Sequence record: LT603033
Source of the DNA: Escherichia phage vB_Eco_slurp01
Direction: 5' to 3' (one strand)
DNA length: 64,000 nucleotides
The notes below the pieces were generated by a model. It had not been told where the DNA came from, ran no database searches, and worked only from the letters and a program-made list of their open reading frames with translations. The position numbers and the translations under genes were made by a program. How positions within the stretch are numbered: position 1 is the first letter of the stretch; every line of letters starts with the position of its first letter. Below, piece by piece: positions 10,946-32,257 of the stretch.

Positions 10946-10954
10946 GAGAACAAT

Positions 10955-11140: not shown

Positions 11141-11141
11141 T

Positions 11142-11327: not shown

Positions 11328-11332
11328 CTAAT

Positions 11333-11723: not shown

Positions 11724-11724
11724 T

Positions 11725-11907
11725 ATGAATAAAGAACATAAAGAATTCTATATACGAAAACTAACATTCGTCCCCGTAAGAATATATAAAGAATGCGACC
11801 CAAGATTATACCTATGGCACTTCAATGAGTGCATAAAAGATTCTATATACCCTAAGAACTATAAAGAACAATTGTGCTCAGTACTAACACTAGTACTATC
11901 ATATTAA
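11725..11907 (+). CDS. Small protein, family A
   Basis: ORF track. Confidence 0.6.
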   Translation: MNKEHKEFYIRKLTFVPVRIYKECDPRLYLWHFNECIKDSIYPKNYKEQLCSVLTLVLSY

Positions 11908-11922
11908 TTAATAGAGAATACT

Positions 11923-12123
11923 ATGTATAAAAACTTCTATATAAGTAAACTAAAAGAAAATGAACAAGTATGGATTAGATCTATAATTCCACTGGCATTT
12001 AATAGATATGCATTTAACAGATGTACCGAGATTGCTATAGACCCTTATAATATTAAAGAGAATGTACAGTATAATCAGTATAATCAGTACTACTATATCT
12101 TAATGATTATATATAGGAAGTAA
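11923..12123 (+). CDS. Small protein, family A (last member)
   Basis: ORF track. Confidence 0.6.
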   Translation: MYKNFYISKLKENEQVWIRSIIPLAFNRYAFNRCTEIAIDPYNIKENVQYNQYNQYYYILMIIYRK

Positions 12124-12303
12124 TATAGCTAGGGGAAGCTCCGTAGTGGAAGCATTATACAGGCTTTAACATATGTTGCATATGTTAAAATTCAGCCTGG
12201 ACAAATGCGATCACTAGGATTCTCCCCAGGCTAAACCCCGTAATCATAGGTAGTCATAAGTAATCATATATAAACATTTATATGAGCACCGTAGAATCAC
12301 AGA

Positions 12304-12512
12304 ATGATTATATATGATTCAGTACTGATTAGTATAGACAAGATTGCTCAAGAATGCACGGAAATGTGTGTGAATGATTCAGTACTGATTAGTATAGACA
12401 AGATTGCTCAAGAATGCACGGAAATGTGTGTGAATGATTCAGTACTGATTAGTATAGACAAGATTGCTCAAGAATGCACGGAAATGTGTGTGAATGATTC
12501 AGTACTGATATG
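12304..12512. repeat. Tandem direct repeat, 60-bp unit x ~3.5
   Basis: Unit GAATGATTCAGTACTGATTAGTATAGACAAGATTGCTCAAGAATGCACGGAAATGTGTGT repeated head-to-tail. Confidence 0.9.
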
Positions 12513-12656
12513 CCACTAAGTAGGCAGAGGAAGTCTGCCGTACTTTGTAGTTTCCAAGCTCCTTTTCCATTTTGCAAATTACATCAAATGTAATCAAAAG
12601 TAATCACGCAATGATTAGTACTGAATTATTACTTTCACCTTAATTACAATTACCCT

Positions 12657-12674
12657 TTTACCCTTCGGGGTAAA
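12657..12674 (+). other. Stable hairpin with UUCG-type tetraloop
   Basis: TTTACCC-TTCG-GGGTAAA perfect 7-bp stem. Confidence 0.5.
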
Positions 12675-12885
12675 ATTCAATTACCCCTTGAGGCTCCAGC
12701 AAAAAGTTGGTTAGTACTCCATCCTAAATCTCGATCCTAAAAATTTTGGAGTACCTATGAAATAAAAGTTGGATCTTCGAAAGTTGAAATTTACGTTGGG
12801 ACGTTTATGATTTGTGGGATATAATGATGTTTGTAGTCGGGTAGTTCTCAAGAATATCAGTACTGAATAATGAAAGAAAGCTATT

Positions 12886-12913
12886 GACATTATGATTCAG
12901 TACTGTATAATGT
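12886..12913 (+). promoter_or_regulatory. Sigma70-like promoter in non-coding hub
   Basis: TTGACA N16 TATAAT; no convincing ORF downstream. Confidence 0.5.
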
Positions 12914-13102
12914 TCTACATAGCTTCAAGGGGTGATGAGTTGCTGCGAACAATTCATTTACTCTACCTCCTGTCGTGAGACAGTACAGAAAAGATAGTTC
13001 CTCCTGTGGTGGTACATCTTTTTGAACCTCATATGAAAATCGTAATAACAGTACTGATATTAACAGAATGGTGTCAGTACTGATTTTAATCTAAAGCATT
13101 AT

Positions 13103-13122
13103 ACCACCAGCTTGTGCTGGTG
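13103..13122. other. Palindromic hairpin made of two inverted Chi octamers (CCACCAGC-TTGT-GCTGGTGG)
   Basis: Read directly; perfect 8-bp stem. Confidence 0.6.
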
Positions 13123-13238
13123 GATTCCCTCTAACAGTATTCAGTACTACATGATGGTCTTCATCCTCCTAGGGTAACATAGTGAGGGCTATGATGGCAG
13201 TACTGAATACTCCCTTTCAAAAGATAGATCTATGGTAT

Positions 13239-13440
13239 AGTACTGACGGATTTTGGGTGTAGTTACCCTGGATGGATTTTGGGCGTAGATATGTCTAGCC
13301 CTCCAGAAGTCTGGAAGTAAAGATGGCTATCCATCTAGACGGCTAAACGGCTAGATTTCTGGATGGCTGGATGGCTAGACGTTTGGACGGCTAAACGGCT
13401 AGATGGTTACACGTCTGGAAGTATAGACGGCTAAATCAAA
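13239..13440. repeat. Iteron-like cluster of short direct repeats
   Basis: GACGGCTAAACGGCTAGAT x2, GGATGGCT x3, TCTGGAAGTA x2, ATTTTGGGCGTA x2-3; AT-rich tract follows at 13441-13460. Confidence 0.6.
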
Positions 13441-14060
13441 ATTTTATTTTGTTTTTCCAATAGTTCCCCTACCGCGTGGGGATAGTTTCCCCGCAGTATC
13501 TGGAGTTAGATTTTTCTGAATCTGGAATCATTATCTTATAAACTGGGGGCAATGTCAACGACCTGGACGGATATTTTTAAAAATTTTTTCAGTACTGAAT
13601 TTTGGGCGTAACTATGCACCCGGTGGGCTTGAGTCTTTCTCGACTTGATGGAACTATTATACAGTACTGGAAAAATAAAGCAATACCCTGGATGAAAAAA
13701 GTTTTAATTAATTTGCTTGCCATCCTGGGCCGGACTATGGTACTATAATTCAGTACTGAGAAAGTGCGTTAACCTGCTAGGGTGCGGGAGTGTATCCTTT
13801 TTTTATATCTTGAATTTTGGACGGATCTTCCCACCCCCTGGGGTATCCGCTTTCTCGCGTCTATGTAGTAATTATACGCTTTTTCAGGATCAAGTCAATA
13901 CCTAAAAACAAAATAATTGAAAATAATTTAACGCGTTTAAACGGCCCGTAAAGCCCTGGAATGATTGGAATGGTGCAAATGTATAGCTTGGGTGTATTAA
14001 TGCGTTAGAATGCGTCTGAGGCCGTTTTACGGGGTGTAGTAGTGATTTGGTGGATTGATT

Positions 14061-14215
14061 CAGTACTGAATAATAGTACTCCTATATAGAAAGATAGTTC
14101 CCCTGGATGGTTGCAGTACTGAATAATAGTACTCCTATATAGAAAGATAGTTCCCCTGGATGGTTGCAGTACTGAATAATAGTTCCCCTATATAGAAAGA
14201 AAACTATTTTAAAAG
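14061..14215. repeat. Tandem direct repeat, 53-bp unit x ~3, immediately upstream of first early promoter
   Basis: CAGTACTGAATAATAGTACTCCTATATAGAAAGATAGTTCCCCTGGATGGTTG repeated. Confidence 0.85.
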
Positions 14216-14231
14216 TATTTGTAGAAAGTAC

Positions 14232-14259
14232 TTGCAAACTATGTTTAACGGCGTATAAT
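14232..14259 (+). promoter_or_regulatory. Early promoter, sigma70-like
   Basis: TTGCAA N16 TATAAT. Confidence 0.7.
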
Positions 14260-14272
14260 GTTTTACATCGAG

Positions 14273-14291
14273 AGCGGGAACACTTCCCGCT
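14273..14291 (+). other. Promoter-proximal hairpin (AGCGGGAA-CAC-TTCCCGCT)
   Basis: 8-bp stem immediately downstream of predicted start site; member of the recurrent hairpin class. Confidence 0.6.
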
Positions 14292-14314
14292 ACATATTAC
14301 GAGAGATTAAAACG

Positions 14315-14677
14315 ATGGCGACTCAAATCACTAAAATTATTGCTAACCTGGTTAACTTTCGCGACGAGATGAAAGATCTTCCGGCAGAAACGGTAAAAAT
14401 TCACATTGCAGCTTATCGGGAACTTATTGCAATGTTACCTCTTAAGCGTGAACAATACGCCGCTACCGTGATGCTTGATGCGATGATCCATAAGATGATC
14501 GCCAGTGATTTAACGATGGTTTATCAGTATATGGGCGAAAATTTCGCGGTGTATAGTAAACCAGTACCAGGAATGGAAAGTACAGAAGTATTACACGGTT
14601 TAAATTTAAAACAAGATGCATGGGATAATATGCCTCGTTTCCTGGTATGGGCTGACAGTGGCAAAATTTACGAATAA
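14315..14677 (+). CDS. Hypothetical early protein (120 aa)
   Basis: ORF 14258..14677 trimmed: upstream ATG lies inside the -10 element; GAGAGA RBS before MATQITK. Confidence 0.7.
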   Translation: MATQITKIIANLVNFRDEMKDLPAETVKIHIAAYRELIAMLPLKREQYAATVMLDAMIHKMIASDLTMVYQYMGENFAVYSKPVPGMESTEVLHGLNLKQDAWDNMPRFLVWADSGKIYE

Positions 14678-14691
14678 GTTTAATAAAGTAC

Positions 14692-14719
14692 TTGCAAACT
14701 ATGTTTAATGGCGTATAAT
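14692..14719 (+). promoter_or_regulatory. Early promoter
   Basis: TTGCAA N16 TATAAT; hairpin GTGGGGAA-TAG-TTCCCCAC at 14732-14750. Confidence 0.7.
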
Positions 14720-14770
14720 GTTTTACATCAGGTGGGGAATAGTTCCCCACTATATAAGAGGATTAAAAAA

Positions 14771-15010
14771 ATGGCTAAATCAAAAATGTTCTTAGGTCAC
14801 AAAAACAAAACTCATTGGAATGTAAGCCTTTGGATTAATAACGATGAATCATTATACCGGTTGGCCCTGGACTTTATTGCCGCCAATACTAATCGCAATG
14901 ATGCGGCCCGTCATATGATGTTATTTTTAGAACAGACTGGACAAGATAAAACACCGGACGGATTCAAATATAGCACTACTGCGATCCGTGCGGCAATGGT
15001 TGGAATGTAA
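14771..15010 (+). CDS. Hypothetical early protein (79 aa)
   Basis: ORF 14708..15010 trimmed to ATG after AAGAGGA RBS. Confidence 0.7.
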   Translation: MAKSKMFLGHKNKTHWNVSLWINNDESLYRLALDFIAANTNRNDAARHMMLFLEQTGQDKTPDGFKYSTTAIRAAMVGM

Positions 15011-15032
15011 TAGAATAGAATTTATTTAAAGT

Positions 15033-15061
15033 ACTATTGCACGGGGATAGTACTTTATAAT
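15033..15061 (+). promoter_or_regulatory. Degenerate early promoter (TATAAT present, -35 region shortened)
   Basis: Aligns with the promoter at 26483-26511 but has a deletion in the spacer. Confidence 0.4.
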
Positions 15062-15098
15062 AGTGTTTTATTCATACACCAACGATAAGGGCAACAGC

Positions 15099-15365
15099 AT
15101 GAATATTAAGTATTTTGCGACGCGTGAACAAGCTCGGATCGCCGCACGCCAGGACGGGGCAACGTTTAAAGATATGGGCGTACAATCGGAACGTGGTAAA
15201 CGTTGGGCCATTGTAAAGCGTAGTACCGCCAGATCATTACAGTACTGGTTAGCGGCCTTAAAAAGACCCGATAGTGTATCGCGACGAGTGGTAGAAATAA
15301 AGCTCGACCGAAAGGGCAACCGCGTGACCGTGTACCGTACTAAAAAGATTGCAGTACTTGAATAA
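15099..15365 (+). CDS. Hypothetical early protein (88 aa); paralog of 26556..26951
   Basis: Trimmed ORF; shared KYFATREQARIAAR...FKDMG...RKGNRVTVY. Confidence 0.7.
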   Translation: MNIKYFATREQARIAARQDGATFKDMGVQSERGKRWAIVKRSTARSLQYWLAALKRPDSVSRRVVEIKLDRKGNRVTVYRTKKIAVLE

Positions 15366-15373
15366 AAAGTACT

Positions 15374-15400
15374 TGCAAACTATGTTTAAAGGCGTATAAT
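15374..15400 (+). promoter_or_regulatory. Early promoter
   Basis: TTGCAA N15 TATAAT; hairpin GCGGGAA-CTC-TTCCCGC at 15415-15431. Confidence 0.7.
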
Positions 15401-15452
15401 GTTTTACATCGAGAGCGGGAACTCTTCCCGCCTATAACCTGGAGTAATAAAA

Positions 15453-15683
15453 ATGACTAATATGTATATGACTGAAGTTAAAACCGTAAAAGATACTACC
15501 ACGAATAAAACTACTTACTTACAGCGGATCTGTGGTGTATGGCAACGTATCAGCAAATCAAAGTACTTTAAATTAACATCATATGCAAACCGTTCGGATT
15601 CATTCAGTACTGAAATAAAAGGTAATAAAGTACACCAATACGGCACTTATTATTATTATAGCCTGGACGCGATTGCAGTATAA
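15453..15683 (+). CDS. Hypothetical early protein (76 aa)
   Basis: ORF track; GGAG RBS. Confidence 0.65.
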   Translation: MTNMYMTEVKTVKDTTTNKTTYLQRICGVWQRISKSKYFKLTSYANRSDSFSTEIKGNKVHQYGTYYYYSLDAIAV

Positions 15684-15713
15684 GCAGTTTACAAATCTTT
15701 ACAATTGCCGGTA

Positions 15714-15742
15714 TTGACTTATTTTGTCAGTACTGGCATAAT
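15714..15742 (+). promoter_or_regulatory. Promoter driving a non-coding stretch
   Basis: TTGACT N17 CATAAT; no ORF over 25 aa follows. Confidence 0.5.
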
Positions 15743-15744
15743 GT

Positions 15745-15925
15745 ATTCATTGGCAGATAAGCCGTAGCCCATAGGGTGCGGGAGTGTATCTATAGAAAAA
15801 GTAGTTTATTACAGTTACAATTGTGCACCCGGTGGGTTAGCTGTTGTCATGGGGTATATTATGCCAGTACTGGATAGTGCTGTCAATACCTTTTTACTAT
15901 TCAGTACTGAAAACTATTTTTAAAA
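15745..15925 (+). ncRNA. Candidate small non-coding RNA
   Basis: Promoter-driven, no ORF; contains inverted copies of the CCCAYNGGGTGC motif that could pair. Confidence 0.3.
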
Positions 15926-15930
15926 AGTAC

Positions 15931-15958
15931 TTGCAAACTATGTTTAAAGGCGTATAAT
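15931..15958 (+). promoter_or_regulatory. Early promoter (upstream member of a tandem pair)
   Basis: TTGCAA N16 TATAAT. Confidence 0.7.
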
Positions 15959-15965
15959 GTTTTAC

Positions 15966-16040
15966 ATCAGGACGGGGAACGAAATAAGTAACTCCCCATT
16001 AAGTAGCCCAGGAGTAAGGCACACGAAAAACTCCCCTGAT
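15966..16040 (+). other. Conserved ~75-nt structured leader element (copy 1 of 3)
   Basis: ATCAGG...CCTGAT closing helix plus internal GGGGA/TCCCC stem-loop; near-identical copy at 25361-25433, related copy at 18275-18385. Confidence 0.5.
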
Positions 16041-16047
16041 AAAATAG

Positions 16048-16076
16048 TTTGAAAATTGTTTTTAAAAGCGTATAAT
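16048..16076 (+). promoter_or_regulatory. Second promoter of tandem pair
   Basis: TTTGAA N17 TATAAT. Confidence 0.5.
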
Positions 16077-16108
16077 ACTTACATCAACTACTGAATGAGG
16101 GTTACAAA

Positions 16109-16720
16109 ATGAAAACTATCACTACTACTACTTTCGTTATGGATTTTTCTGAATTGAACGCAGAACAAAAAACGTCAGCTATCGAACTGGTTCGGGAACG
16201 TGAAAAAAACTCAAACGACAATTATTTTTCTGAAAGTGAAATTGAATACTATAAAGAAACAGTACTACCGGAATATGGCATTAATGACGCTGAAATACAA
16301 TTCAGTGGTTTTTGGTCCCAGGGTGACGGTGCATCAATCAGTACTGACCACGTTGACGCAGTGAAGTTTTTACGCAAGGTAAGAGCATTAACTAAGTATC
16401 GCTCAATCCGTCACCTGCTGAATGAAGATGATTTGGCGATGAGTGTAAAGCGTTCTCACTCTCACTACTCGCATGAGAACACTGTAAGCGGGTACATTGA
16501 ATCGGCTTACACTGATTTAACCGCAAAACAAGAAACGTTAGTTAATGAGCTTGAGGAACTACTCACTGAAACTATTCGTGAATTGTCACGCAAGTTGTAC
16601 CGTGATTTAGAGAATGCATATGAGGATCAATTCACTACTGAAAACATCGTAGCACTGATTGAGGGTAACGAGTATCAATTCAATGTTATTGATGGCGTAG
16701 TAGAATCAATCGAATATTAA
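16109..16720 (+). CDS. Hypothetical acidic protein (203 aa)
   Basis: ORF track; GAGGG RBS. Confidence 0.75.
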   Translation: MKTITTTTFVMDFSELNAEQKTSAIELVREREKNSNDNYFSESEIEYYKETVLPEYGINDAEIQFSGFWSQGDGASISTDHVDAVKFLRKVRALTKYRSIRHLLNEDDLAMSVKRSHSHYSHENTVSGYIESAYTDLTAKQETLVNELEELLTETIRELSRKLYRDLENAYEDQFTTENIVALIEGNEYQFNVIDGVVESIEY

Positions 16721-16732
16721 TTCAAAAAGTAC

Positions 16733-16760
16733 TGGACACTAAGCAATAAAGGCGTATAAT
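16733..16760 (+). promoter_or_regulatory. Early promoter
   Basis: TGGACA N16 TATAAT; hairpin AGCGGGAA-TAG-TTCCCGCT at 16774-16792. Confidence 0.6.
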
Positions 16761-16812
16761 ACTTTATATCGAGAGCGGGAATAGTTCCCGCTACTAATGA
16801 GGAATACTACAA

Positions 16813-16977
16813 ATGAATACTTTTACCTTCGCTCAATTGAACGCCCTGGATGTATTGTCTGATGCTTTGCGGGATGCAACTGAAAGCGGTTTATTTGACA
16901 ATGTTGACATTCACCCTGATGTAATTAATAATTTTTGTGATGCTATCGCAGAAGTACTGGAAGATCTAAAAAAATAA
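16813..16977 (+). CDS. Hypothetical small protein (54 aa, below ORF-track cutoff)
   Basis: Own translation MNTFTFAQLNALDVLSDALRDATESGLFDN...; GAGGAA RBS; promoter upstream. Confidence 0.5.
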   Translation: MNTFTFAQLNALDVLSDALRDATESGLFDNVDIHPDVINNFCDAIAEVLEDLKK

Positions 16978-16987
16978 TAGAAAGTAC

Positions 16988-17015
16988 TTGCAATTAGTTT
17001 TTAGTACTGTATAAT
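16988..17015 (+). promoter_or_regulatory. Early promoter
   Basis: TTGCAA N16 TATAAT; hairpin 17028-17047. Confidence 0.7.
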
Positions 17016-17065
17016 AGTTTACATAGAGGGGAGAAATGGTTCTCCCTGGTAATGAGGAAAATAAA

Positions 17066-17287
17066 ATGGCTAATATCACTACTCTTTCTCAACTGGAAGC
17101 ACTGGTTAAATCTATGCGGGAACATGCAGACAATATCGGCGTAAAAGATCCAGCCGTTTGCTTCTGCGACGAAATGAATGATGATACACTGGTAATAGCA
17201 GAAGTACAAGATATTTCTAACTATTCATCGCGTTACACTGGCGGCGTAGCAAATAAAGGTGACTTCTGTTTATACCTTACCAAATAA
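17066..17287 (+). CDS. Hypothetical early protein (73 aa)
   Basis: ORF 17036..17287 trimmed to MANITTLS after GAGGAAAA RBS. Confidence 0.65.
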   Translation: MANITTLSQLEALVKSMREHADNIGVKDPAVCFCDEMNDDTLVIAEVQDISNYSSRYTGGVANKGDFCLYLTK

Positions 17288-17292
17288 CAACG

Positions 17293-17322
17293 CGGGGAGA
17301 TAATAACTCCCCGTTACTTTTT
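17293..17322 (+). terminator. Intrinsic terminator
   Basis: CGGGGAG-ATAATAA-CTCCCCG then TTACTTTTTC. Confidence 0.7.
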
Positions 17323-17455
17323 CAGTACTGAATCATTTAATAGACGGATCTCGGCACCCTGTGGGTTAGTGACTGTATCGTCTTTATGTAGTAATTATGC
17401 CAGTACTGGATGCACTTGTCAACAACTATTTTTCAAATACTTTTTATTAAAATAC

Positions 17456-17483
17456 TTGCTAATAGTTTTTAAACGCGTATAAT
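17456..17483 (+). promoter_or_regulatory. Early promoter
   Basis: TTGCTA N16 TATAAT; hairpin GGGGAG-CGG-TTCCCC at 17494-17508. Confidence 0.6.
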
Positions 17484-17529
17484 GTTTTGCATAGGGGAGC
17501 GGTTCCCCTGGTAACTAAGGAATAAGAAA

Positions 17530-17766
17530 ATGCTTGAACAAATCAAATCAACGTCTGCTAATGTAACGGGAACGGTATCACACTTTATTGGTGATGAATC
17601 GCGGGGCGTTCCCTATTGTGCTGTACATGTAAACACTGAGGGTAACTACTGGTTTACGGTTTACGGATCATATTCATTTGGACGGCCAGGGCATCAAAAA
17701 ATTCTGGATAAAGTACAACCAACGGGTAAAAATATCACTGCCGAAATGTTTTATAAAAAATCATAA
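17530..17766 (+). CDS. Hypothetical early protein (78 aa)
   Basis: ORF track; TAAGGAATAAG RBS. Confidence 0.7.
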   Translation: MLEQIKSTSANVTGTVSHFIGDESRGVPYCAVHVNTEGNYWFTVYGSYSFGRPGHQKILDKVQPTGKNITAEMFYKKS

Positions 17767-17771
17767 AGTAC

Positions 17772-17799
17772 TTGATAATAGTTTTTAGTACTGTACAAT
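17772..17799 (+). promoter_or_regulatory. Early promoter
   Basis: TTGATA N16 TACAAT; hairpin GGGGGAG-CGG-TTCCCCC at 17814-17830. Confidence 0.6.
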
Positions 17800-17850
17800 A
17801 TTTTACATCGCACGGGGGAGCGGTTCCCCCTGGTAACTAAGGATAATCAA

Positions 17851-18150
17851 ATGAAAATTGCAATCATCGCCCTGGCTTTATCTGTTTCCTCTTTCGCTGT
17901 TAACGCGTCGTTAGATGTACCTAGTGAAAAATTCATTCAGTGTACTGTTGCGATGACAGATGAAAGTACTGGCGAGATTGTTTTAAAGGATTTAGAGATC
18001 CAGTCAGAAGCATTTAAAAGCGGCCCGTTCCATGAAGAAGACGAAAAAGGTAGCACGACAATTTATTACGATGTAAGTACTAAGCGTGGATCGGTCACGG
18101 TTATGGATACTGAGAAAGTAACGCACACCGGAGTAATTAACTGTTTATAA
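17851..18150 (+). CDS. Putative secreted/periplasmic small protein (99 aa)
   Basis: N-terminus MKIAIIALALSVSSFAVNA|S has signal-peptide character (basic n-region, hydrophobic core, AxA site). Confidence 0.7.
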   Translation: MKIAIIALALSVSSFAVNASLDVPSEKFIQCTVAMTDESTGEIVLKDLEIQSEAFKSGPFHEEDEKGSTTIYYDVSTKRGSVTVMDTEKVTHTGVINCL

Positions 18151-18167
18151 TATAGTACTGAATCACT

Positions 18168-18196
18168 AGCCCACCTTAAACAGTGGGCTTTTTTGT
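18168..18196 (+). terminator. Intrinsic terminator
   Basis: AGCCCAC-CTTAAACA-GTGGGCT + TTTTTT; identical copy at 18894. Confidence 0.8.
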
Positions 18197-18238
18197 TTTG
18201 TAGTACTGCATACTTTAAAAATAGTTTTAAAAAAGTAG

Positions 18239-18266
18239 TTGACATTACCACAAAAAGGCGTAGAAT
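18239..18266 (+). promoter_or_regulatory. Early promoter with long structured leader
   Basis: TTGACA N16 TAGAAT; ~110-nt leader 18275-18385 related to 15966 element. Confidence 0.65.
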
Positions 18267-18389
18267 GTATTACATCAAGACGGGGAGCACTAAGTAGACC
18301 GCCAGTAAGTCGAACGAAAAACTGGACACGTCGATAAAACTTTGATACACTAATAAACGTAAACTAAACTTTAATTGAGGATTTATAAA

Positions 18390-18872
18390 ATGGCTAATGT
18401 AAAATCATTCCTGAAAGCACTGATTTCAAACGATACTGTTATTGCTGCTGAATTGCTGGCTGAACTGGATAACGATACAATGAAAGCGGTACGCAACAAT
18501 TTTAACATTGCGTACAGTGAAGCTAAAGAACTGCAAGCCAAAAAGGTAGCAGAACTGGAAGAACAGAAAAAAGCCCGTGAAGCAGAACTACAAGCAACAA
18601 TTGAAAGTATTCAGGCGGCAGTGTCTGGATTGGATCTGGAAGTGGTTGTAGAAATGGCACATAAAGCCCTGGCGGTTAAGTACGGTGAAGATAAGCCGGA
18701 ATCTAAACCTAAAAAATGGATTCAAGAACGTGTTACTGTAGTACTTGATAACGGTGAAGAACATTTGATTCCTGTACGCGGTAACTGCATTGCGGTAGTA
18801 CTGGACGCTATCAAAGAAAGCGGTATGACTCGCGAGGAATGGATCGAAGCTCATCGCAAAGTTGAAGCATAA
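18390..18872 (+). CDS. Hypothetical protein with predicted coiled-coil N-terminal half (160 aa)
   Basis: ORF 18375..18872 trimmed to MANVKSF after GAGGA RBS. Confidence 0.7.
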   Translation: MANVKSFLKALISNDTVIAAELLAELDNDTMKAVRNNFNIAYSEAKELQAKKVAELEEQKKAREAELQATIESIQAAVSGLDLEVVVEMAHKALAVKYGEDKPESKPKKWIQERVTVVLDNGEEHLIPVRGNCIAVVLDAIKESGMTREEWIEAHRKVEA

Positions 18873-18893
18873 CAATTAAAGTACTGAATCAAT

Positions 18894-18921
18894 AGCCCAC
18901 CTTAAACAGTGGGCTTTTTTG
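18894..18921 (+). terminator. Intrinsic terminator (duplicate of 18168)
   Basis: Same hairpin + T-run. Confidence 0.8.
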
Positions 18922-19074
18922 TGTCTATAGTATTCCAGTCCACTAGCACCGCCTAGAATCGATTCTAACGCATTAAACTGATTATCTGATACATCGCCCT
19001 AGCTGGTGGCGTTAAGGTCGTTAGAAAGCGATTGAGAGTGTTTAAAGTATTTTGCAAAAAGTAATAAAAAGTAC

Positions 19075-19102
19075 TTGCATGATTAAGAGATTAGCGTATA
19101 AT
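19075..19102 (+). promoter_or_regulatory. Early promoter
   Basis: TTGCAT N16 TATAAT; hairpin ~19115-19132. Confidence 0.65.
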
Positions 19103-19156
19103 GTTTTACATCGAAAGGGGAAACGGTTCTCCTTCCAAATCAAAGGAATCAAAACA

Positions 19157-19384
19157 ATGGCTATTATCATTACTCGCGTATCTGGTACTACTGGCAATTC
19201 TTCTACTGTTGCAGTCATTACTAACAAGGCAGGTGCGGAATTGCAAAATGCAATGAATACCTGGGCCGTTAATGAGTTCGGTCAGTGGGCAAGTGTAGCA
19301 TACATTGAAACCTATCAAGTGCCGACCATTAGTTTAACGGATCTTGGTGTGGAACGTATCCTTTGCTTGGATGAATTAAATTAA
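19157..19384 (+). CDS. Hypothetical early protein (75 aa)
   Basis: ORF 19052..19384 trimmed to MAIIITRV after AAAGGAAT RBS. Confidence 0.65.
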   Translation: MAIIITRVSGTTGNSSTVAVITNKAGAELQNAMNTWAVNEFGQWASVAYIETYQVPTISLTDLGVERILCLDELN

Positions 19385-19392
19385 AAAAGTAC

Positions 19393-19420
19393 TTGCAAAG
19401 TAAATCGAATAAAGTATAAT
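19393..19420 (+). promoter_or_regulatory. Early promoter
   Basis: TTGCAA N16 TATAAT; hairpin GGGGAGAA-ATGA-TTCTCCCC at 19433-19452. Confidence 0.7.
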
Positions 19421-19469
19421 ACATTACATCAAGGGGAGAAATGATTCTCCCCACTACAAGGAAACTAAT

Positions 19470-19613
19470 ATGAAAACTTGTCAATGTGGTAAAAAATCTA
19501 TTACTGGTTTAAAGCGGGGCGTTGCTCTTTGCCAGTACCATTATAATTTACAAGTATGGGGTAAAGAATGGGCCGACCAGGTGGAAGCAATTAAGAAAGC
19601 AAAAAGTAAGTAA
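19470..19613 (+). CDS. Small Cys/His-containing protein (47 aa), possible zinc ribbon
   Basis: Own translation MKTCQCGKKSITGLKRGVALCQYHYNLQVWGKEW...; below ORF-track cutoff. Confidence 0.45.
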   Translation: MKTCQCGKKSITGLKRGVALCQYHYNLQVWGKEWADQVEAIKKAKSK

Positions 19614-19632
19614 AAATATTATCACAGTACTA

Positions 19633-19661
19633 TTGACATAGTTTGATAGTACTGGCATAAT
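19633..19661 (+). promoter_or_regulatory. Early promoter (class without downstream hairpin)
   Basis: TTGACA N17 CATAAT. Confidence 0.7.
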
Positions 19662-19702
19662 AGATTTTATCAAGACAACATATTAATTTAAGGAATACTA
19701 AA

Positions 19703-20026
19703 ATGGCTAAAACTATCATTAACACCGTTTCCCTGGCTGCAATCCGTGCAATCAATGTTGACGGTAAACGTTGGACTGATTCATATGGCAATACTTATCA
19801 TTCTTGTCATGTAAGCGTCGAACTGGATAACGGTTTGAATGTTCTGGCGGTTGAATCATTTACTTATGGCTATGAAGATGCATATCAACAAACGGCGTTA
19901 GATCTATTAAAGGAATCAGTAGACGGGCTTAATACTGATGAAACCTCCCTTACTCGTTTGTGCAATGATCTTAATATCCCGTTGCATTGTACTGTACAGA
20001 ATGTTAAACGCAAAAAAGATCTTTAA
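19703..20026 (+). CDS. Hypothetical early protein (107 aa); paralog of 26137..26460
   Basis: ORF track; shared RWTDSxGNTYHSC...FTYGY...VKRKKD. Confidence 0.75.
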   Translation: MAKTIINTVSLAAIRAINVDGKRWTDSYGNTYHSCHVSVELDNGLNVLAVESFTYGYEDAYQQTALDLLKESVDGLNTDETSLTRLCNDLNIPLHCTVQNVKRKKDL

Positions 20027-20106
20027 TTAGCTTTACTTTATGCAGATACTTTGATATAGTGTCTGCATAGGGGAAAGAAATTAAATTAACTTAAGAGGAT
20101 CGTATA

Positions 20107-20376
20107 ATGAAAAATATCAGTACTTTAATCGATGCAGGTACACATGTTCGGCGGTCTATGGTTGCAACCAGTACTACAAAACAAGTAGCAAGCGGTTATC
20201 TTGTATTTGTGCACGATGGTAAACTCCTGGAACGTTCAATCAATTTTGATGTTAAAAACAATTGCCGTTTTATTATCTTTAAGCGTGAACAATATAAAAT
20301 TGATTTGCCAGCGAAGCCCATTAGCGGGGCGTACAACGTGCAATCATTGTTTGAGCGTCAACCATACACCTATTGA
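20107..20376 (+). CDS. Hypothetical protein (89 aa)
   Basis: ORF track; AAGAGGA RBS. Confidence 0.65.
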   Translation: MKNISTLIDAGTHVRRSMVATSTTKQVASGYLVFVHDGKLLERSINFDVKNNCRFIIFKREQYKIDLPAKPISGAYNVQSLFERQPYTY

Positions 20377-20427
20377 TCAAATCATCGTTAGTGGTCGATT
20401 TAGGCCGCTTATATTGGGGATTATACC

Positions 20428-20700
20428 ATGAACGTTAATCAAGTACTAAATGAAGTTGAAAGCATCATTAAACCAATGAAACGTATTGATGCAATGCTAA
20501 CACCGGAAGAATGCCGCCTTTATGAGCGTTACAGCGTCGAACAAGTCCAGGCGATGGCTATGGCTACCCCTGCCGTTAAACAGCCTGAGAATGCGTTACA
20601 GGACGTTACAGGGGATTATATCATTAATCCAGTACTAGGGAAGATTACACCAATCACCGAAGAAGAAAAAGACTACTTAAGCCAGTACTTAAAAGGTTAA
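20428..20700 (+). CDS. Hypothetical protein (90 aa)
   Basis: ORF track. Confidence 0.6.
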   Translation: MNVNQVLNEVESIIKPMKRIDAMLTPEECRLYERYSVEQVQAMAMATPAVKQPENALQDVTGDYIINPVLGKITPITEEEKDYLSQYLKG

Positions 20701-20705
20701 TTAAT

Positions 20706-20915
20706 ATGCTTACTGTACAGGATAAGATCGACATCTTAAAGGTTAATATGTATGTGATTGATGCAGATCCTGAAAAAGTATTTGCATACGATGATTCTAA
20801 TCGTAGTCCTTTTTATTGTAGTCATGTAGTTGGATACGTGCCGTTAGCGTATGTTATCGAAAGAGTGGTTGATTCAGCATACAAACATTTTTTAGAAAAT
20901 AATACTTGCAATTAG
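20706..20915 (+). CDS. Hypothetical protein (69 aa)
   Basis: ORF track; stop lies inside the next promoter. Confidence 0.55.
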   Translation: MLTVQDKIDILKVNMYVIDADPEKVFAYDDSNRSPFYCSHVVGYVPLAYVIERVVDSAYKHFLENNTCN

Positions 20916-20933
20916 TTTTTAGTACTGTATAAT
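20906..20933 (+). promoter_or_regulatory. Early promoter
   Basis: TTGCAA N16 TATAAT; hairpin ~20946-20967. Confidence 0.7.
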
Positions 20934-20984
20934 AGTTTACATGAAGTGGAGAAATAGTTCTCCCCACTAATTAAGGAATATGAA

Positions 20985-21131
20985 ATGAAAGCATCAAAAA
21001 AGAGTACTAATAAGAAAGCACGTTCAACTTTAGATGGGGTATTCCCTTTGCGTTTTGTGGATGAAGTGGTTTCCTACCCGCTGGGGCTTACTCCTGAGAT
21101 GGTAGAAAGTTTACGTAAATCTAAAAAATAA
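20985..21131 (+). CDS. Hypothetical small basic protein (48 aa)
   Basis: Own translation MKASKKSTNKKARSTLDGVFPLRF...; below ORF-track cutoff. Confidence 0.45.
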   Translation: MKASKKSTNKKARSTLDGVFPLRFVDEVVSYPLGLTPEMVESLRKSKK

Positions 21132-21134
21132 TAC

Positions 21135-21162
21135 TTGCAATTAGTTTTTAGTACTGTATAAT
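21135..21162 (+). promoter_or_regulatory. Early promoter
   Basis: TTGCAA N16 TATAAT; hairpin 21175-21194. Confidence 0.7.
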
Positions 21163-21212
21163 AGTTTACATGAAGGGGAGAAATGATTCTCCCCAAGAAC
21201 AGGAGAAATAAA

Positions 21213-21365
21213 ATGAAACAATATAATGCTCGGTTTGATGTTACTATCGGTAACGGTAAAGGTCAATTTTCTTTCAGTACTCGACGCAGTTATACAGAAA
21301 ACTTCCTGCGTAATTGTGCACTGACCGCCGCTCAAATTAAACATTATTTTCAGGCTAAAAAATGA
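21213..21365 (+). CDS. Hypothetical small protein (50 aa)
   Basis: ORF 21183..21365 trimmed to MKQYNARF after AGGAGAAA RBS. Confidence 0.55.
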   Translation: MKQYNARFDVTIGNGKGQFSFSTRRSYTENFLRNCALTAAQIKHYFQAKK

Positions 21366-21451
21366 AATCATTAGCTTATTACAGTTCGGCCCTGGTCGTT
21401 GCATTGATCGCGGCGTTGTTAGTAACCTATCTATTCTTTATGGTGATTTAA
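21362..21451 (+). CDS. Tiny hydrophobic peptide (29 aa), predicted single transmembrane helix
   Basis: Own translation MKSLAYYSSALVVALIAALLVTYLFFMVI; ATGA coupling. Confidence 0.35.
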   Translation: MKSLAYYSSALVVALIAALLVTYLFFMVI

Positions 21452-21589
21452 ATGAATCCTAACGGTATAATTTACAGTACTCCTAAAACGAAAGCAGACA
21501 AGGTAAACGCTAAAAAAGCGAAAGTAAAGGAGTACATCAAGCAAGGCATGACGCGAAAGGCGGCGATTCTAAAAGCTAAAAATAAATGA
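21452..21589 (+). CDS. Small basic protein (45 aa)
   Basis: Own translation MNPNGIIYSTPKTKADKVNAKKAKVKEYIKQGMTRKAAILKAKNK. Confidence 0.4.
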   Translation: MNPNGIIYSTPKTKADKVNAKKAKVKEYIKQGMTRKAAILKAKNK

Positions 21590-21595
21590 AAAAAG

Positions 21596-21720
21596 TGGTT
21601 GACTTCGGTCAGCCATTTTGCTATTATATATTCATTGAGAGATAGCTCACTAGCCCACAGGGTGCAGGAGTGTATCTATTGTATAATGTTTGAGTACTGA
21701 AAACTATTTTTAAAAAAGTA
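21596..21720 (+). repeat. Repeated intergenic module (hairpin overlapping TTGACT-N17-TATTAT promoter + CCCACAGGGTGC motif), copy 1
   Basis: Other copies at 25196-25320, 28463-28600, 30726-30870. Confidence 0.7.
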
Positions 21721-21721
21721 C

Positions 21722-21749
21722 TTGAAAACTATCTCAATTGGCGTATAAT
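21722..21749 (+). promoter_or_regulatory. Early promoter
   Basis: TTGAAA N16 TATAAT; hairpin 21764-21780. Confidence 0.65.
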
Positions 21750-21800
21750 GTTTTACATCGCAAGGGGAAACGGTTTCCCCTGGTAATAAGGAAACGAATC

Positions 21801-22142
21801 ATGACTATCTCAATTGCTCAATCTAACTTTGAAAATGAAATCATCGCCCAGGTACTGCGTTTAAATGATGGTCGGGCCGAAATTAATTACGGTTTCAATT
21901 CAGGCGGTTGTGAAAACTATCAGTACTTTGTAACGGCTGATGGCGGTGTCCTGGGCATCAATACAGTTATTGTAAACATCCAAAAAATTAATTTCAATGA
22001 TCCAGACGATAGCCAGTTTTACATCACTGGCGTAGACGTGAACTATGAGGATGACTCACTAACTGATGATTACACTGGTGAGCGGTTAGAAAGTGCTTAT
22101 GGTGAAGATGATTATCAGTCAGTACCGGAAGATTTCGAATAA
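21801..22142 (+). CDS. Hypothetical early protein (113 aa)
   Basis: ORF 21738..22142 trimmed to MTISIAQ after AAGGAAAC RBS. Confidence 0.7.
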   Translation: MTISIAQSNFENEIIAQVLRLNDGRAEINYGFNSGGCENYQYFVTADGGVLGINTVIVNIQKINFNDPDDSQFYITGVDVNYEDDSLTDDYTGERLESAYGEDDYQSVPEDFE

Positions 22143-22155
22143 TATAAAAAATAGT

Positions 22156-22183
22156 TTGACAATAGATTATAGTACTGTATAAT
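22156..22183 (+). promoter_or_regulatory. Early promoter
   Basis: TTGACA N16 TATAAT; hairpin GGGGAGAA-TAG-TTCTCCCC at 22196-22214. Confidence 0.7.
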
Positions 22184-22234
22184 AGTTTACATCAAGGGGA
22201 GAATAGTTCTCCCCACTAACAGAGAAAAAACAAA

Positions 22235-22447
22235 ATGGCTAATATCCGCACTGTACTGAAAAATGCAAAACAAGTTTTATTTTCTGATCATGATACTTTC
22301 AACAAGGATATTACTGGCGTTCGGAATATCAAAGATGTAAAAAGTGTTATGGGTATCTATTGCAATATGAAACGTGTTGGAACGTTCGGCGACAAAGTAC
22401 TATACCAGGCAGGGGATTACAATTTTACACTGACTATCATTAACTAA
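22235..22447 (+). CDS. Hypothetical early protein (70 aa)
   Basis: ORF track. Confidence 0.7.
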   Translation: MANIRTVLKNAKQVLFSDHDTFNKDITGVRNIKDVKSVMGIYCNMKRVGTFGDKVLYQAGDYNFTLTIIN

Positions 22448-22466
22448 AAATATTATCACAGTACTA

Positions 22467-22495
22467 TTGACATAGTTTGATAGTACTGACATAAT
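22467..22495 (+). promoter_or_regulatory. Early promoter (no-hairpin class)
   Basis: TTGACA N17 CATAAT. Confidence 0.7.
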
Positions 22496-22530
22496 AAGTT
22501 TTATCAACTACACTACTAAGGAATTAAAAA

Positions 22531-22710
22531 ATGGCTATCATCGCAAAAACTGAAATCATCGGCCTGGATTCTATCATCATGACGTTTGAAGATCAAAAAG
22601 GTATGTATGTGGTTTCCTATGGTGATTATGTTCGGGAGTATGAAACGGTAGACGAAGCCTTTGAAAGTTACATTCGCCAGGTGAATAAAGCATACGACGA
22701 CTACCGCTAA
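22531..22710 (+). CDS. Hypothetical small protein (59 aa)
   Basis: Own translation MAIIAKTEIIGLDSIIMTFEDQKG...; AAGGAATT RBS. Confidence 0.5.
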   Translation: MAIIAKTEIIGLDSIIMTFEDQKGMYVVSYGDYVREYETVDEAFESYIRQVNKAYDDYR

Positions 22711-22737
22711 AATATATTACCAGTACTATTAAAGATA

Positions 22738-22765
22738 TTGACAACGTTTGATAGTACTGTATAAT
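22738..22765 (+). promoter_or_regulatory. Early promoter
   Basis: TTGACA N16 TATAAT. Confidence 0.7.
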
Positions 22766-22808
22766 AAGTTTTATCAACAGTAGTTAACTTAACCTAAGAG
22801 AGAAACAA

Positions 22809-22913
22809 AATGATCGCACTGGATTCATTCATCGACGCAGTACTGGCAAAAACTGGCGAGGATCTGACCGCAGAACAATACGCAATGATCGAGCAATGCC
22901 AGCAAGACGGTAA
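22809..22913 (+). CDS. Short ORF (34 aa) with a more protein-like continuation in the +1 frame to 22953; possible frameshifted gene
   Basis: ATG after AAGAGAGA RBS; GGG run at 22859-22861 shifts frame. Confidence 0.3.
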   Translation, partial: NDRTGFIHRRSTGKNWRGSDRRTIRNDRAMPARR

Positions 22914-22959
22914 ATCGGTGAAAGATACTGTTAAGATTATCCGCAAGATGTAAGATTAT

Positions 22960-22990
22960 AGCCCACTGGTTAACGCTGGTGGGCTTTAAT
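22960..22990 (+). terminator. Putative terminator
   Basis: AGCCCAC...GTGGGCT stem then T-rich; stem includes a Chi octamer. Confidence 0.5.
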
Positions 22991-23058
22991 TCATTACCCT
23001 ATACAATGCCAGTACTAAACCGTTTATCTCCTTAGAATGCGTTACAGGACGTTTGACA

Positions 23059-23256
23059 ATGATTAGCATGAAATCAGTACAAAAACAAATAGAAACATTA
23101 TCAAAAATTAAACGTAAACAGTACTCGTTAGAATATACAATCAATGGTAACTATCATCTAATGAAAGAGAATAATTTCATTGTCATTGATGAATCATTGC
23201 AAATCATTAGTATAGTACTGAAAGCATTAATCAATGACAGAAAAAAATTAAAATAA
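23059..23256 (+). CDS. Hypothetical protein (66 aa)
   Basis: ORF track (TTG start at 23053) trimmed to first ATG; no clear promoter. Confidence 0.45.
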   Translation: MISMKSVQKQIETLSKIKRKQYSLEYTINGNYHLMKENNFIVIDESLQIISIVLKALINDRKKLK

Positions 23257-23260
23257 TATA

Positions 23261-23289
23261 TTGACAATATCCTCCAGTACTGGCATAAT
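23261..23289 (+). promoter_or_regulatory. Promoter followed by ~290-bp non-coding leader
   Basis: TTGACA N17 CATAAT. Confidence 0.65.
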
Positions 23290-23587
23290 ACTTACATCAA
23301 GACGAGAACGTCACTAACCCATAGGGTGCACAAATGTAACTGTATAATATTGATCAAAAAATGATCTGATCAATACTTGATCAATTTGCGTAAAGTAGTA
23401 TAATTCTATGCAGTTGGTTAGACGAAAGGTTATGATTAGTAGTGCAAGTGTATAAAAATTTTCATGGTGTATCGTTTCGCACATATGGGGATGAATATGT
23501 GGTATCATGTGGATTGGAAAAAGTAAGAACAAGTAATATTATTGTCGCATTACAGTACTATAGTATTTTTATAATGAGGTTAAAATA
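23290..23587 (+). ncRNA. Candidate non-coding RNA or long leader with clustered TGATCA/GATC
   Basis: No plus-strand ORF; TTGATCAA x3 + GATCTGATCAA within 23340-23395. Confidence 0.3.
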
Positions 23588-23845
23588 ATGGCTGTAGGAT
23601 TCGCGAAAGATGGGGCCGAACAAGACGAGATTAACGCAGTGATTCAGGCCGCCGTTAACCACGCTAGAAAGCAAATTAACGCACAAATAGAATCACTGAT
23701 ACATTGCCTCGACTGCGGCGATATAATCCCTGAGAAACGACGCCAGGCCGTTAAGGGGTGTAAGTACTGCATAACTTGCCAGGAGGATCATGATAGTACT
23801 TTTAAACGTCCCCCGCGTAATTGTTGGCATAGATCTATGAGATAA
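23588..23845 (+). CDS. TraR/DksA-family C4 zinc-finger protein (85 aa)
   Basis: CLDCGDIIPEKRRQAVKGCKYC fits C-x2-C-x3-I-P-x2-R...C-x2-C signature. Confidence 0.6.
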   Translation: MAVGFAKDGAEQDEINAVIQAAVNHARKQINAQIESLIHCLDCGDIIPEKRRQAVKGCKYCITCQEDHDSTFKRPPRNCWHRSMR

Positions 23846-23851
23846 AAAGTA

Positions 23852-23880
23852 TTGACAGTACTATCCAGTAGTGTTATAGT
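23852..23880 (+). promoter_or_regulatory. Early promoter
   Basis: TTGACA N17 TATAGT; hairpin GGGGAA-ACATC-TTCCCC at 23892-23908. Confidence 0.65.
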
Positions 23881-23926
23881 ACTTACATCAAGGGGAAACA
23901 TCTTCCCCTACTAAGAGGAAATGAAA

Positions 23927-24115
23927 ATGGAAAACTTATCAAGTATTTTAGTACAAGATGATTTCGGTAATCCTGGAAGTGCTATCATTGTTCGGGGTAA
24001 TAAAGCAACATTTGTTATTGCTGGTGGACCTGTACAGCGTAGCATTAAAAATAATGCTGTTACCATTAATAATGTACGCTATCGCTTAGATAAAGAATTG
24101 ATTCATAAACTGTAA
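23927..24115 (+). CDS. Hypothetical early protein (62 aa)
   Basis: ORF 23921..24115; second ATG has better RBS spacing. Confidence 0.6.
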   Translation: MENLSSILVQDDFGNPGSAIIVRGNKATFVIAGGPVQRSIKNNAVTINNVRYRLDKELIHKL

Positions 24116-24142
24116 TATTAATTTAATAGAGGATAACAATAA

Positions 24143-24466
24143 ATGTACATTCATACTACTATCACAAAGGAAGTCCGTTGCCAGTTCGAAAGTATTCCGG
24201 GCGTATGTTTCATCACTGGTACGTTTTCCCCTGGTGATCGTGATAATCCAGTACTGTTACAATTACGCCATCCATCATGGGATAAAGCATTTGATCTACC
24301 GTTGAATGAATTCGCAACTACTGCTGAAAAGTACATTAAAAATATTCGCGAGAATGATCGACTATTCATTAATGCTTTTAGTGATTCCGCGTTAAGCGAG
24401 ATCCACGGCGTATTGGTTGCAATCATGGAATCAATGGAGAAAACTAAATTCAAACAAGGTGAATAA
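24143..24466 (+). CDS. Hypothetical protein (107 aa)
   Basis: ORF track; GAGGATAA RBS. Confidence 0.65.
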   Translation: MYIHTTITKEVRCQFESIPGVCFITGTFSPGDRDNPVLLQLRHPSWDKAFDLPLNEFATTAEKYIKNIRENDRLFINAFSDSALSEIHGVLVAIMESMEKTKFKQGE

Positions 24467-24472
24467 AAACTA

Positions 24473-24500
24473 TTGACAAGATAATCTAGTACTGTATAAT
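24473..24500 (+). promoter_or_regulatory. Early promoter
   Basis: TTGACA N16 TATAAT; hairpin 24513-24532. Confidence 0.7.
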
Positions 24501-24549
24501 AAGTTACATGAAGGGGAGAAATGATTCTCCCCACTAAGAGGAAAGAAAA

Positions 24550-24762
24550 ATGCAAGGTCAACTAATCGTTCGTAAATGGTCTGATACTAACGAAAAACCG
24601 TGGGATGTACAATACATCGGACCGGATGGGGTATCACGTTATCAGCCAGGCGTAACGCATAGTACTGAGCAATATGCCGCCGCTCACCGCGAACGCCTGT
24701 TAGAATCCATGAAACAGGGATTCTGTGAAAAATTCATTCAAGATCATTGGCTGAAAGATTAA
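24550..24762 (+). CDS. Hypothetical early protein (70 aa)
   Basis: ORF track; AAGAGGAAAG RBS. Confidence 0.7.
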   Translation: MQGQLIVRKWSDTNEKPWDVQYIGPDGVSRYQPGVTHSTEQYAAAHRERLLESMKQGFCEKFIQDHWLKD

Positions 24763-24779
24763 TAGAAGGAGTACAGCTT

Positions 24780-24872
24780 ATGCAAATGAATCCGATGATT
24801 ATTGTTTTAGCTGTACTTATGATCATTCATGCAATAGTAGAAGTATTAACGCAATCAGGAGTAATAAAATGA
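24780..24872 (+). CDS. Tiny hydrophobic peptide (30 aa), predicted transmembrane
   Basis: Own translation MQMNPMIIVLAVLMIIHAIVEVLTQSGVIK; GAAGGAG RBS. Confidence 0.45.
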   Translation: MQMNPMIIVLAVLMIIHAIVEVLTQSGVIK

Positions 24873-25051
24873 TTCAAGTAGAATTATCAGTACTAAAAGA
24901 TCTGTTTTATCGGATTGGTACTACTGGCGAATATCCGAAGGGTGATAATGCAAAACTTTACGTATCACTCGACTTATGGCAACGCGAACAATTAGCAACG
25001 GCCTGGCGTAAAGGCAAAGCAGATAGCGAGGTGAAAGCATGAAAGAATTCT
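24869..25051 (+). CDS. Hypothetical small protein (60 aa)
   Basis: Own translation MIQVELSVLKDLFYRIGTTGEYPKG...; ATGA overlap. Confidence 0.45.
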
Positions 25052-32092: not shown

Positions 32093-32157
32093 AGAAAAAA
32101 GTCAAGGCGTTTTTAAAATTATGCGTTAAAAAAATGCATAGGTAATCCCTTGACTTT
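32093..32157. repeat. 13-bp perfect inverted repeat AAAAAAGTCAAGG...CCTTGACTTTTTT flanking a ~40-bp spacer
   Basis: Read directly; sits at the boundary between early region and family B array. Confidence 0.6.
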
Positions 32158-32257
32158 TTTGAAATAAAAGGGATTGGACTATGGCAAAATGCGTAGGGGG
32201 CTAAAGGGCGGGTAACCTTAGCGACTTCGATAAAGGGGTATTACGAATAAAATGTTA

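Follow-up and report, generated by a model that had tools for sequence, protein, structure and literature searches.

A conserved DksA/TraR-family zinc-finger protein of the YbiI branch in the terminal-repeat region of an Asteriusvirus jumbo phage is a candidate effector of host RNA polymerase

Sequence comparison confirms that positions 23588-23845 of the DNA analysed here (a stretch of 64,000 nucleotides that we call the window) hold a genuine conserved gene of the DksA/TraR family. The product belongs securely to the DksA/TraR zinc-finger superfamily and falls on its YbiI branch, a placement that follows from profile scores, PDB matches, an AlphaFold2 model and the Foldseek ranking taken together, and it is the equivalog of neither TraR, YbiI nor DksA. 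[quoted passage not shown] The family assignment itself is not new. Sister genomes already carry the labels ‘DksA-like zinc-finger protein’, ‘TraR/DksA C4-type zinc finger protein’ or ‘C-4 type zinc finger protein’ (121Q gp294), and the annotation therefore adds nothing to the public record; other sister records list a ‘hypothetical protein’, and a few, phage UB among them, have no gene annotated at this place. The gene and the parts of its product discussed below are as follows.

23576..23579, + strand: ribosome-binding site GAGG, 8 nt 5' of the ATG
23588..23845, + strand: zinc-finger gene, 85 codons and a stop; C4 protein of the DksA/TraR family, YbiI branch
23588..23629, + strand: N-terminal tip MAVGFAKDGAEQDE, codons 1-14, near-invariant in phage and bacterial YbiI-type proteins
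23603..23680, + strand: N-terminal helix predicted by AlphaFold2, residues 6-31, counterpart of TraR-N (residues 2-27)
23705..23779, + strand: C4 zinc knuckle C40-x2-C43-x17-C61-x2-C64, which holds I47, P48, E49 and R51/R52
23771..23800, + strand: short C-terminal helix predicted by AlphaFold2, residues 62-71
23801..23842, + strand: phage-clade-specific basic tail FKRPPRNCWHRSMR, predicted to be disordered

The reading frame and its 85-aa product (MAVGFAKDGAEQDEINAVIQAAVNHARKQINAQIESLIHCLDCGDIIPEKRRQAVKGCKYCITCQEDHDSTFKRPPRNCWHRSMR) are exactly as given in a preliminary description of this DNA. The ATG overlaps the TAA stop of the preceding ORF 23442-23588 in the string TAATG, and the stretch from ribosome-binding site to ATG is unchanged in WPEC3 and E9.1. 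Because M1 and A2 are invariant among the 57 homologs aligned, we regard the start codon as correct. The preliminary description had also claimed DksA/TraR membership, proposing a profile search as one check and a missing profile hit as part of the grounds for dropping the claim. The search gave a significant match, with Pfam PF01258 scoring 41.2 bits against a gathering cut-off of 24.9 (E=1.6e-10) and PHROG 54 (‘DksA-like zinc-finger protein’) matching at E=1e-18, and the membership thus stands.

Assignment to a named subfamily is a different matter, given that the protein scores below the cut-offs of the NCBIfam models for the YbiI equivalog (PRK11019, 81.4 against 96), the TraR family (TIGR02419, 52.5 against 59.7), TraR (PRK13715, 30.1 against 108) and DksA (NF033459, 13.9 against 105). 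DksA proper is ruled out by this last score together with the length of 85 aa and the single helix. The closest solved relatives in a sequence search of PDB are YbiI (2KGO, E=2e-12) and TraR (5W1S/6N57, E=1e-5).

The C4 signature on which the preliminary description had relied holds up in part. The string that it quoted, CLDCGDIIPEKRRQAVKGCKYC, is indeed found at residues 40-61; its mistake was to stop at C61 and to count C58 among the metal-binding cysteines. The four zinc ligands are C40, C43, C61 and C64, all of which are invariant across the 57 homologs. In the 44 phage-clade sequences, residue 58 is Cys 23 times and Val 21 times; TraR and YbiI have Val there, and C58 is therefore not a ligand. 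The same near-equal Cys/Val frequency rules out a second metal site that would use C58, and an alternative site formed by C79, H81 and H25 is pure speculation. Within the globular domain, I47, G57 and Q65 never vary and P48 and E49 hardly do, and the invariant pair R51/R52 (23738-23743) is equivalent to the docking residues R48/R49 of TraR, of which R48 contacts the rim helices and R49 contacts beta-prime Si3 (PMC9239242). By the criteria of the Gourse laboratory, a working TraR-like protein has a DxxDxA tip, a C4 knuckle and a C-terminal helix on beta Si1, and a C4 zinc finger alone is no guarantee of DksA-like function, as some relatives differ (PMC9239242).

The tip is where the phage protein departs from TraR. 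The helix that TraR-like proteins insert into the secondary channel carries the DxxDxA motif at its N-terminal end (PMC9239242). The canonical motif is absent from the phage tip, which runs MAVG-F-A-K-D8-G-A10-E11-Q-D13-E14 and reads G-F-A-K-D-G-A-E where DxxDxA was sought. What is present is the YbiI-type tip MAxG[FW]AxDGA at its fixed distance from the zinc finger, with D8 placed exactly 32 residues ahead of the first Cys in 59 of the 69 YbiI-type representatives recovered by exhaustive search. In true DxxDxA proteins, the spacing between the second Asp and the first Cys is 28-36 residues, mostly 30-33, and in TraR it is 31. From this difference in spacing (32 versus 31), D8-x-A10 is therefore off the D6-x-A8 position of TraR by one residue, with an aromatic in place of the first Asp. 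In an hhalign comparison between YbiI-type proteins and 23 genuine DxxDxA proteins, each set entered as an alignment, the match had a probability of 99.7% and residues 12-77 aligned ungapped with TraR 9-73; the tips were left unaligned, and a strict extension of the register puts D3/D6/A8 of TraR on A6/G9/E11.

A partial resemblance to DxxDxA is offered by the acidic pair D8-x-x-E11, which in the phage clade is part of an acidic stripe, D8-x-x-E11-x-x-E14. E11 is found in 43 of 44 phage-clade sequences and E14 in 44 of 44, whereas bacterial YbiI has V11 and Q14. No part of the protein is better conserved than the tip, and over codons 1-12 the jumbo-phage and T4-like copies differ by 6-8 synonymous changes and by 0 amino-acid changes.

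The AlphaFold2 model, built from the 57 homologs, predicts the long helix at residues 6-31, the zinc knuckle, the helix at residues 62-71 and an unstructured tail at residues 72-85, and so shows the superfamily fold of long helix, knuckle and C-terminal helix at moderate confidence (pLDDT 73). Foldseek ranks YbiI first, RNA-polymerase-bound TraR second and DksA third. Superposition of the model on polymerase-bound TraR gives TM scores of 0.56/0.64 and an rmsd of 3.7-4.0 over 68-69 columns. In TraR, the segment that enters the secondary channel, TraR-N, spans residues 2-27 and the C-terminal helix comprises 16 residues, 58-73 (PMC6970531). The corresponding C-terminal helix of the phage protein is predicted to have 10 residues, and the disordered tail follows it.

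This tail is a hallmark of the phage clade. Residues R77-N-C-W-H-R82 and M84 are invariant in 44/44 phage-clade proteins, S83 is kept in 43/44 and R85 in 38/44, such that residues 77-85 (RNCWHRSMR) are near-constant even though overall identity within the clade drops to 62%. The amino acids survive synonymous changes, including a switch of the serine codon from TCT to AGC, and the constraint therefore acts on the protein and not on adjacent promoter DNA. Bacterial YbiI proteins end in YNRRGSKDSQLR, a different and equally conserved tail; where this would stand, the phage protein has PRNCWHRSMR, and only R77 and the last residue are common to both. The metagenomic protein P0065 has an intermediate tail, NRKVWHRSMR, and TraR has no counterpart of RNCWHRSMR. 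The tail is also met in another setting, the Mosigvirus TH58 (1390-1581 of our record L003), where the last 26 residues of the zinc-finger protein (YCVGCQSMHDEIFKREPRNCWHRSMR) are fused to an unrelated N-terminus in a chimeric ORF of 63 aa, which has neither the first CxxC nor the helix. This chimera probably explains PHROG 25948, which matches residues 59-85 only.

The gene is under purifying selection, as pairwise omega is 0.1-0.27 wherever dS is unsaturated. At 98% identity, the region matches Escherichia phage PBECO4 and about 40 other Asteriusvirus-type jumbo phages of about 350 kb, and the window belongs to an Asteriusvirus (PBECO4/121Q-like) jumbo phage. Among the Asteriusvirus-type records, 34 of 34 carry the zinc-finger gene and 21 carry a neighbouring early gene. 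The gene is also present at about 73% identity in a second group of jumbo phages (SE_PL, Munch, 7t3 and fENko-Kae01) and at 65-72% identity in many T4-like Straboviridae, where it lies in the early tk-vs-rI accessory region. In an exhaustive search of 1.84 billion representatives at 50% identity, the clade with the phage tail forms a single representative.

Comparison by blastp of the ORFs within 1.5 kb of the gene in five contexts revealed no flanking gene common to the Asteriusvirus, SE_PL-type and T4-like settings. The gene thus moves as a solo cassette, and the conserved partner gene for which this comparison looked, one like QisA of VP882, was not found. Translational coupling links the gene to the upstream ORF 23442-23588, which occurs in this genus alone; the identity of that ORF to its WPEC3 version is only 62.5%, compared with 98-100% for neighbouring genes. 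In E9.1, vB_Ec-M-J and WPEC3, an extra gene of about 357 nt stands right after the zinc-finger gene and is absent from the window (23846-23920, compared with 8710-9207 of our record L001); it is annotated as an acetyltransferase in E9.1 and vB_Ec-M-J and as a hypothetical protein in WPEC3. The early region is mosaic. Our searches also revealed a third, small clade of PF01258 proteins (P0070, P0096, P0098, P0112, P0123, P0139, P0143, P0147 and P0197), which fall in neither the DxxDxA nor the YbiI type, with an N-terminus like MSGYGGPDD... and a conserved C-terminus, ...MLTKML or ...LTYML.

The preliminary description had placed the gene in an early region, and this label gains indirect support from the position of the gene in the equivalent of a direct terminal repeat that is dense in same-strand promoters. 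The relevant features are these.

12519..32220 (approximate), + strand: equivalent of the direct terminal repeat of vB_Ec-M-J, with 22 of the 32 near-consensus sigma-70 promoters on the + strand of the window
23261..23289, + strand: nearest strong upstream promoter, sigma-70-type, TTGACA-17-CATAAT with an extended -10 TG
23290..23587, + strand: leader of about 300 nt, with the first ~100 nt and the last ~60 nt conserved and the middle strongly diverged from WPEC3

In vB_Ec-M-J, the gene is at position 12,349, inside an annotated direct terminal repeat of about 21.5 kb (1-21,525), and in fENko-Kae01 it is at 4,429, inside a repeat that spans 1-19,736. When a near-consensus sigma-70 promoter is defined as one that matches at least 11 of 12 positions, the 64 kb window holds 32 on the + strand and 6 on the - strand, against about 2.5 per strand in shuffled sequence. 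From the terminal-repeat position and this promoter context, we strongly infer that the gene is expressed early by the host polymerase. Asteriusviruses are described as dependent on the host polymerase together with a sigma factor of their own (PMC11895373). The stretch 12519-32220 is filled by dozens of small orphan ORFs, every one of them on the + strand, in a layout similar to that of the pre-early terminal repeat of T5.

The building block of this region is a repeated early-expression cassette of about 70-100 nt, of which at least 15 copies lie between 14204 and 31365 (for example at 16970-17068, 21117-21215, 24455-24553 and 28598-28668). Its elements are, in order, an A-rich upstream stretch (AAAGTAC), TTGACA or TTGCAA, a spacer of 16-17 nt, TATAAT, an AT-rich discriminator ((A/G)TTTTACATC), a conserved 5' UTR hairpin with GGGGA/TCCCC arms (GGGGAGAA/TTCTCCCC), a ribosome-binding site (ACTAAGAGGAAA) and ATG. 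The zinc-finger gene itself has no such cassette and no strong promoter directly in front of it. A degenerate candidate just upstream, ATTACA-15-TATAAT, has its -10 element overlapping the ribosome-binding site, and we judged it to be a remnant of the early-promoter motif. Between the strong promoter at 23261-23289 and the gene, we found no terminator-like site. The leader contains the 48-aa ORF at 23442-23588, which is doubtfully coding and is open in both the window and WPEC3. A search for a leader RNA element with Rfam returned no match at E<=0.1 across 20-28 kb.

Other features of the surroundings deserve mention. Terminator-like hairpins (AAAGGGATTGACTCCGGTCAGTCCCTTT) at 21592-21627 and 25200-25235 hold a TTGACT -35 element within the stem, and each is followed by TG-n-TATTAT, such that terminator and next promoter would overlap. 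A 60-aa ORF at 25866-26048 (MAKCTICKKEIVLVP...THTACQVAKR...) has a CxxC ... HxxC pattern and no Pfam match, which suggests another small zinc-binding early protein. A Pfam scan of ten neighbouring ORFs gave one match, to DUF7247, and nothing else, and a tRNA scan of the window found none.

These observations can be combined into a mechanism that would proceed as follows. Very early in infection, the host sigma-70 RNA polymerase would transcribe the gene from the terminal-repeat region, and the protein, with its TraR-like build, would dock in the secondary channel of that same enzyme. The surface that carries R51/R52 would rest against the rim helices and the Si3 insertion of beta-prime, and the acidic tip (D8, E11 and E14) would reach toward the active site. 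Such binding would alter open-complex kinetics without a need for ppGpp. Host promoters whose open complexes are unstable, such as those for rRNA and ribosomal proteins, would be depressed, and phage early promoters, with their near-consensus hexamers and AT-rich discriminators, would be spared. The discriminator of rrnB P1 is GC-rich, which is the basis of its sensitivity to DksA/ppGpp and to TraR; the 7-nt discriminators of the phage early promoters have a mean GC content of 28%.

Precedent for such a role comes from both sides of the family. TraR homologs of temperate phages reprogram the host RNA polymerase and raise phage yield, and five of the five phage TraR homologs that have been tested bind RNA polymerase and inhibit rrnB P1, one of them without D3 (PMC9239242). 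On the YbiI side, a high level of YbiI is reported to rescue dksA auxotrophy (‘data not shown’, PMC2613031), and the authors of that report considered iron metabolism the likelier role of YbiI. In the literature, we found no study of action on RNA polymerase by homologs of the YbiI branch or of strictly lytic or jumbo phages.

Given that the tip differs from that of TraR, it seems appropriate to ask whether the protein might occupy the channel without acting as TraR does, by excluding host DksA/ppGpp or GreA/GreB and thereby blocking a stringent-type shutdown or altering elongation. The globular-domain contacts are conserved, yet the tip has no DxxDxA and is 3 residues longer; the tip aspartates of TraR and DksA are required for function and not for binding, and Rnk provides a precedent for a competitor in the channel. 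However, conservation is highest in the 12-residue tip, which points to an active role and not to passive occupancy, the reported rescue of dksA auxotrophy by YbiI implies a positive DksA-like activity, and X. bovienii Gp34, which has no D3, still inhibits rrnB P1. We therefore consider this an unlikely account. Quite improbable, in our estimation, is the idea that the target of this YbiI-type protein is something other than RNA polymerase, with tail and tip serving another partner or a nucleic acid and the knuckle acting as a scaffold. It draws on the strongly conserved, clade-specific tails of both clades, for which TraR has no counterpart, on the sigma-S dependence of YbiI, on family members that have no DksA-like function and on VP882 TraR, which acts in complex with another phage protein. 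Against it, the counterparts of the residues through which TraR docks with the rim helices and Si3 never vary here, polymerase-bound TraR and DksA are among the best structural matches, and no neighbouring gene is co-conserved in the jumbo and T4-like contexts that might encode an obvious partner.

The suggestion that the ORF arose by chance or is a decaying remnant without function can be regarded as effectively refuted, even if several GenBank records leave it unannotated or hypothetical and a truncated chimera persists in Mosigvirus TH58, because profile matches are significant, omega stays at 0.1-0.27 with synonymous divergence that reaches saturation, and every one of the 34 Asteriusvirus-type records, like many T4-like phages, has a full-length copy. 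Binding in the secondary channel with a TraR-like shift of host transcription thus remains the reading that we prefer. A more ambitious version would hold that the phage clade is a distinct class of RNA-polymerase effector, perhaps derived from a bacterial YbiI-like ancestor, in which E11/E14, H25 and RNCWHRSMR add an activity or a second contact not present in TraR and DksA. We offer this tentatively and think it doubtful. If true, it would also reveal the role of the widespread bacterial YbiI proteins.

The protein is an ordinary member of its family, and the class of mechanism proposed has already been published for homologs from temperate phages. Hardly any of the dozens of other early genes in the terminal repeat, most of them orphans, have a function that can be recognised, and for this reason the gene offers a tractable entry to the takeover of transcription by 350 kb phages that depend on the host polymerase. 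Work on it could likewise illuminate the function of bacterial YbiI.

Among known systems, E. coli YbiI (2KGO, PRK11019) is the best match in both sequence and fold and is of similar length. Both have the tip MAxG[FW]AKDGA, whose Asp stands 32 residues ahead of the first Cys, and their zinc knuckles agree in the conserved RR pair and in the I, P, E, G and Q residues. They differ in that YbiI has V11, Q14 and mostly R25 where E11, E14 and H25 are fixed in the phage clade, and in that YbiI is chromosomal and sigma-S dependent, whereas the present gene is phage-borne and, we infer, early. F-plasmid TraR (5W1S, 6N57) has the same three-part architecture with a single N-terminal helix. However, identity to TraR is only 26-29%, the DxxDxA of TraR is not found in the phage protein, whose tip is 3 residues longer, and the phage protein has a shorter C-terminal helix plus an extra tail of 14 residues. 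DksA, which is among the fold matches, resembles the phage protein in its C4 zinc finger and in having a helix that reaches into the secondary channel, but it is about 150 aa long, has a coiled coil of two helices and needs ppGpp, in contrast to the 85 aa and single helix seen here.

Also close are small PF01258 proteins of other phages that are expressed with early or lytic genes, namely phage lambda Orf73, P2 Orf82, VP882 Orf61, VHML Orf8 and X. bovienii Gp34. Lambda Orf73 even has the extra Cys within its knuckle (GCRTCASCQED, compared with GCKYCITCQED here), and Gp34, without the first Asp, still binds the polymerase and inhibits rrnB P1, more weakly. These tested homologs belong to temperate phages or prophages and to the DxxDxA branch of the family, whereas the protein described here belongs to strictly lytic jumbo and T4-like phages and to the YbiI branch.
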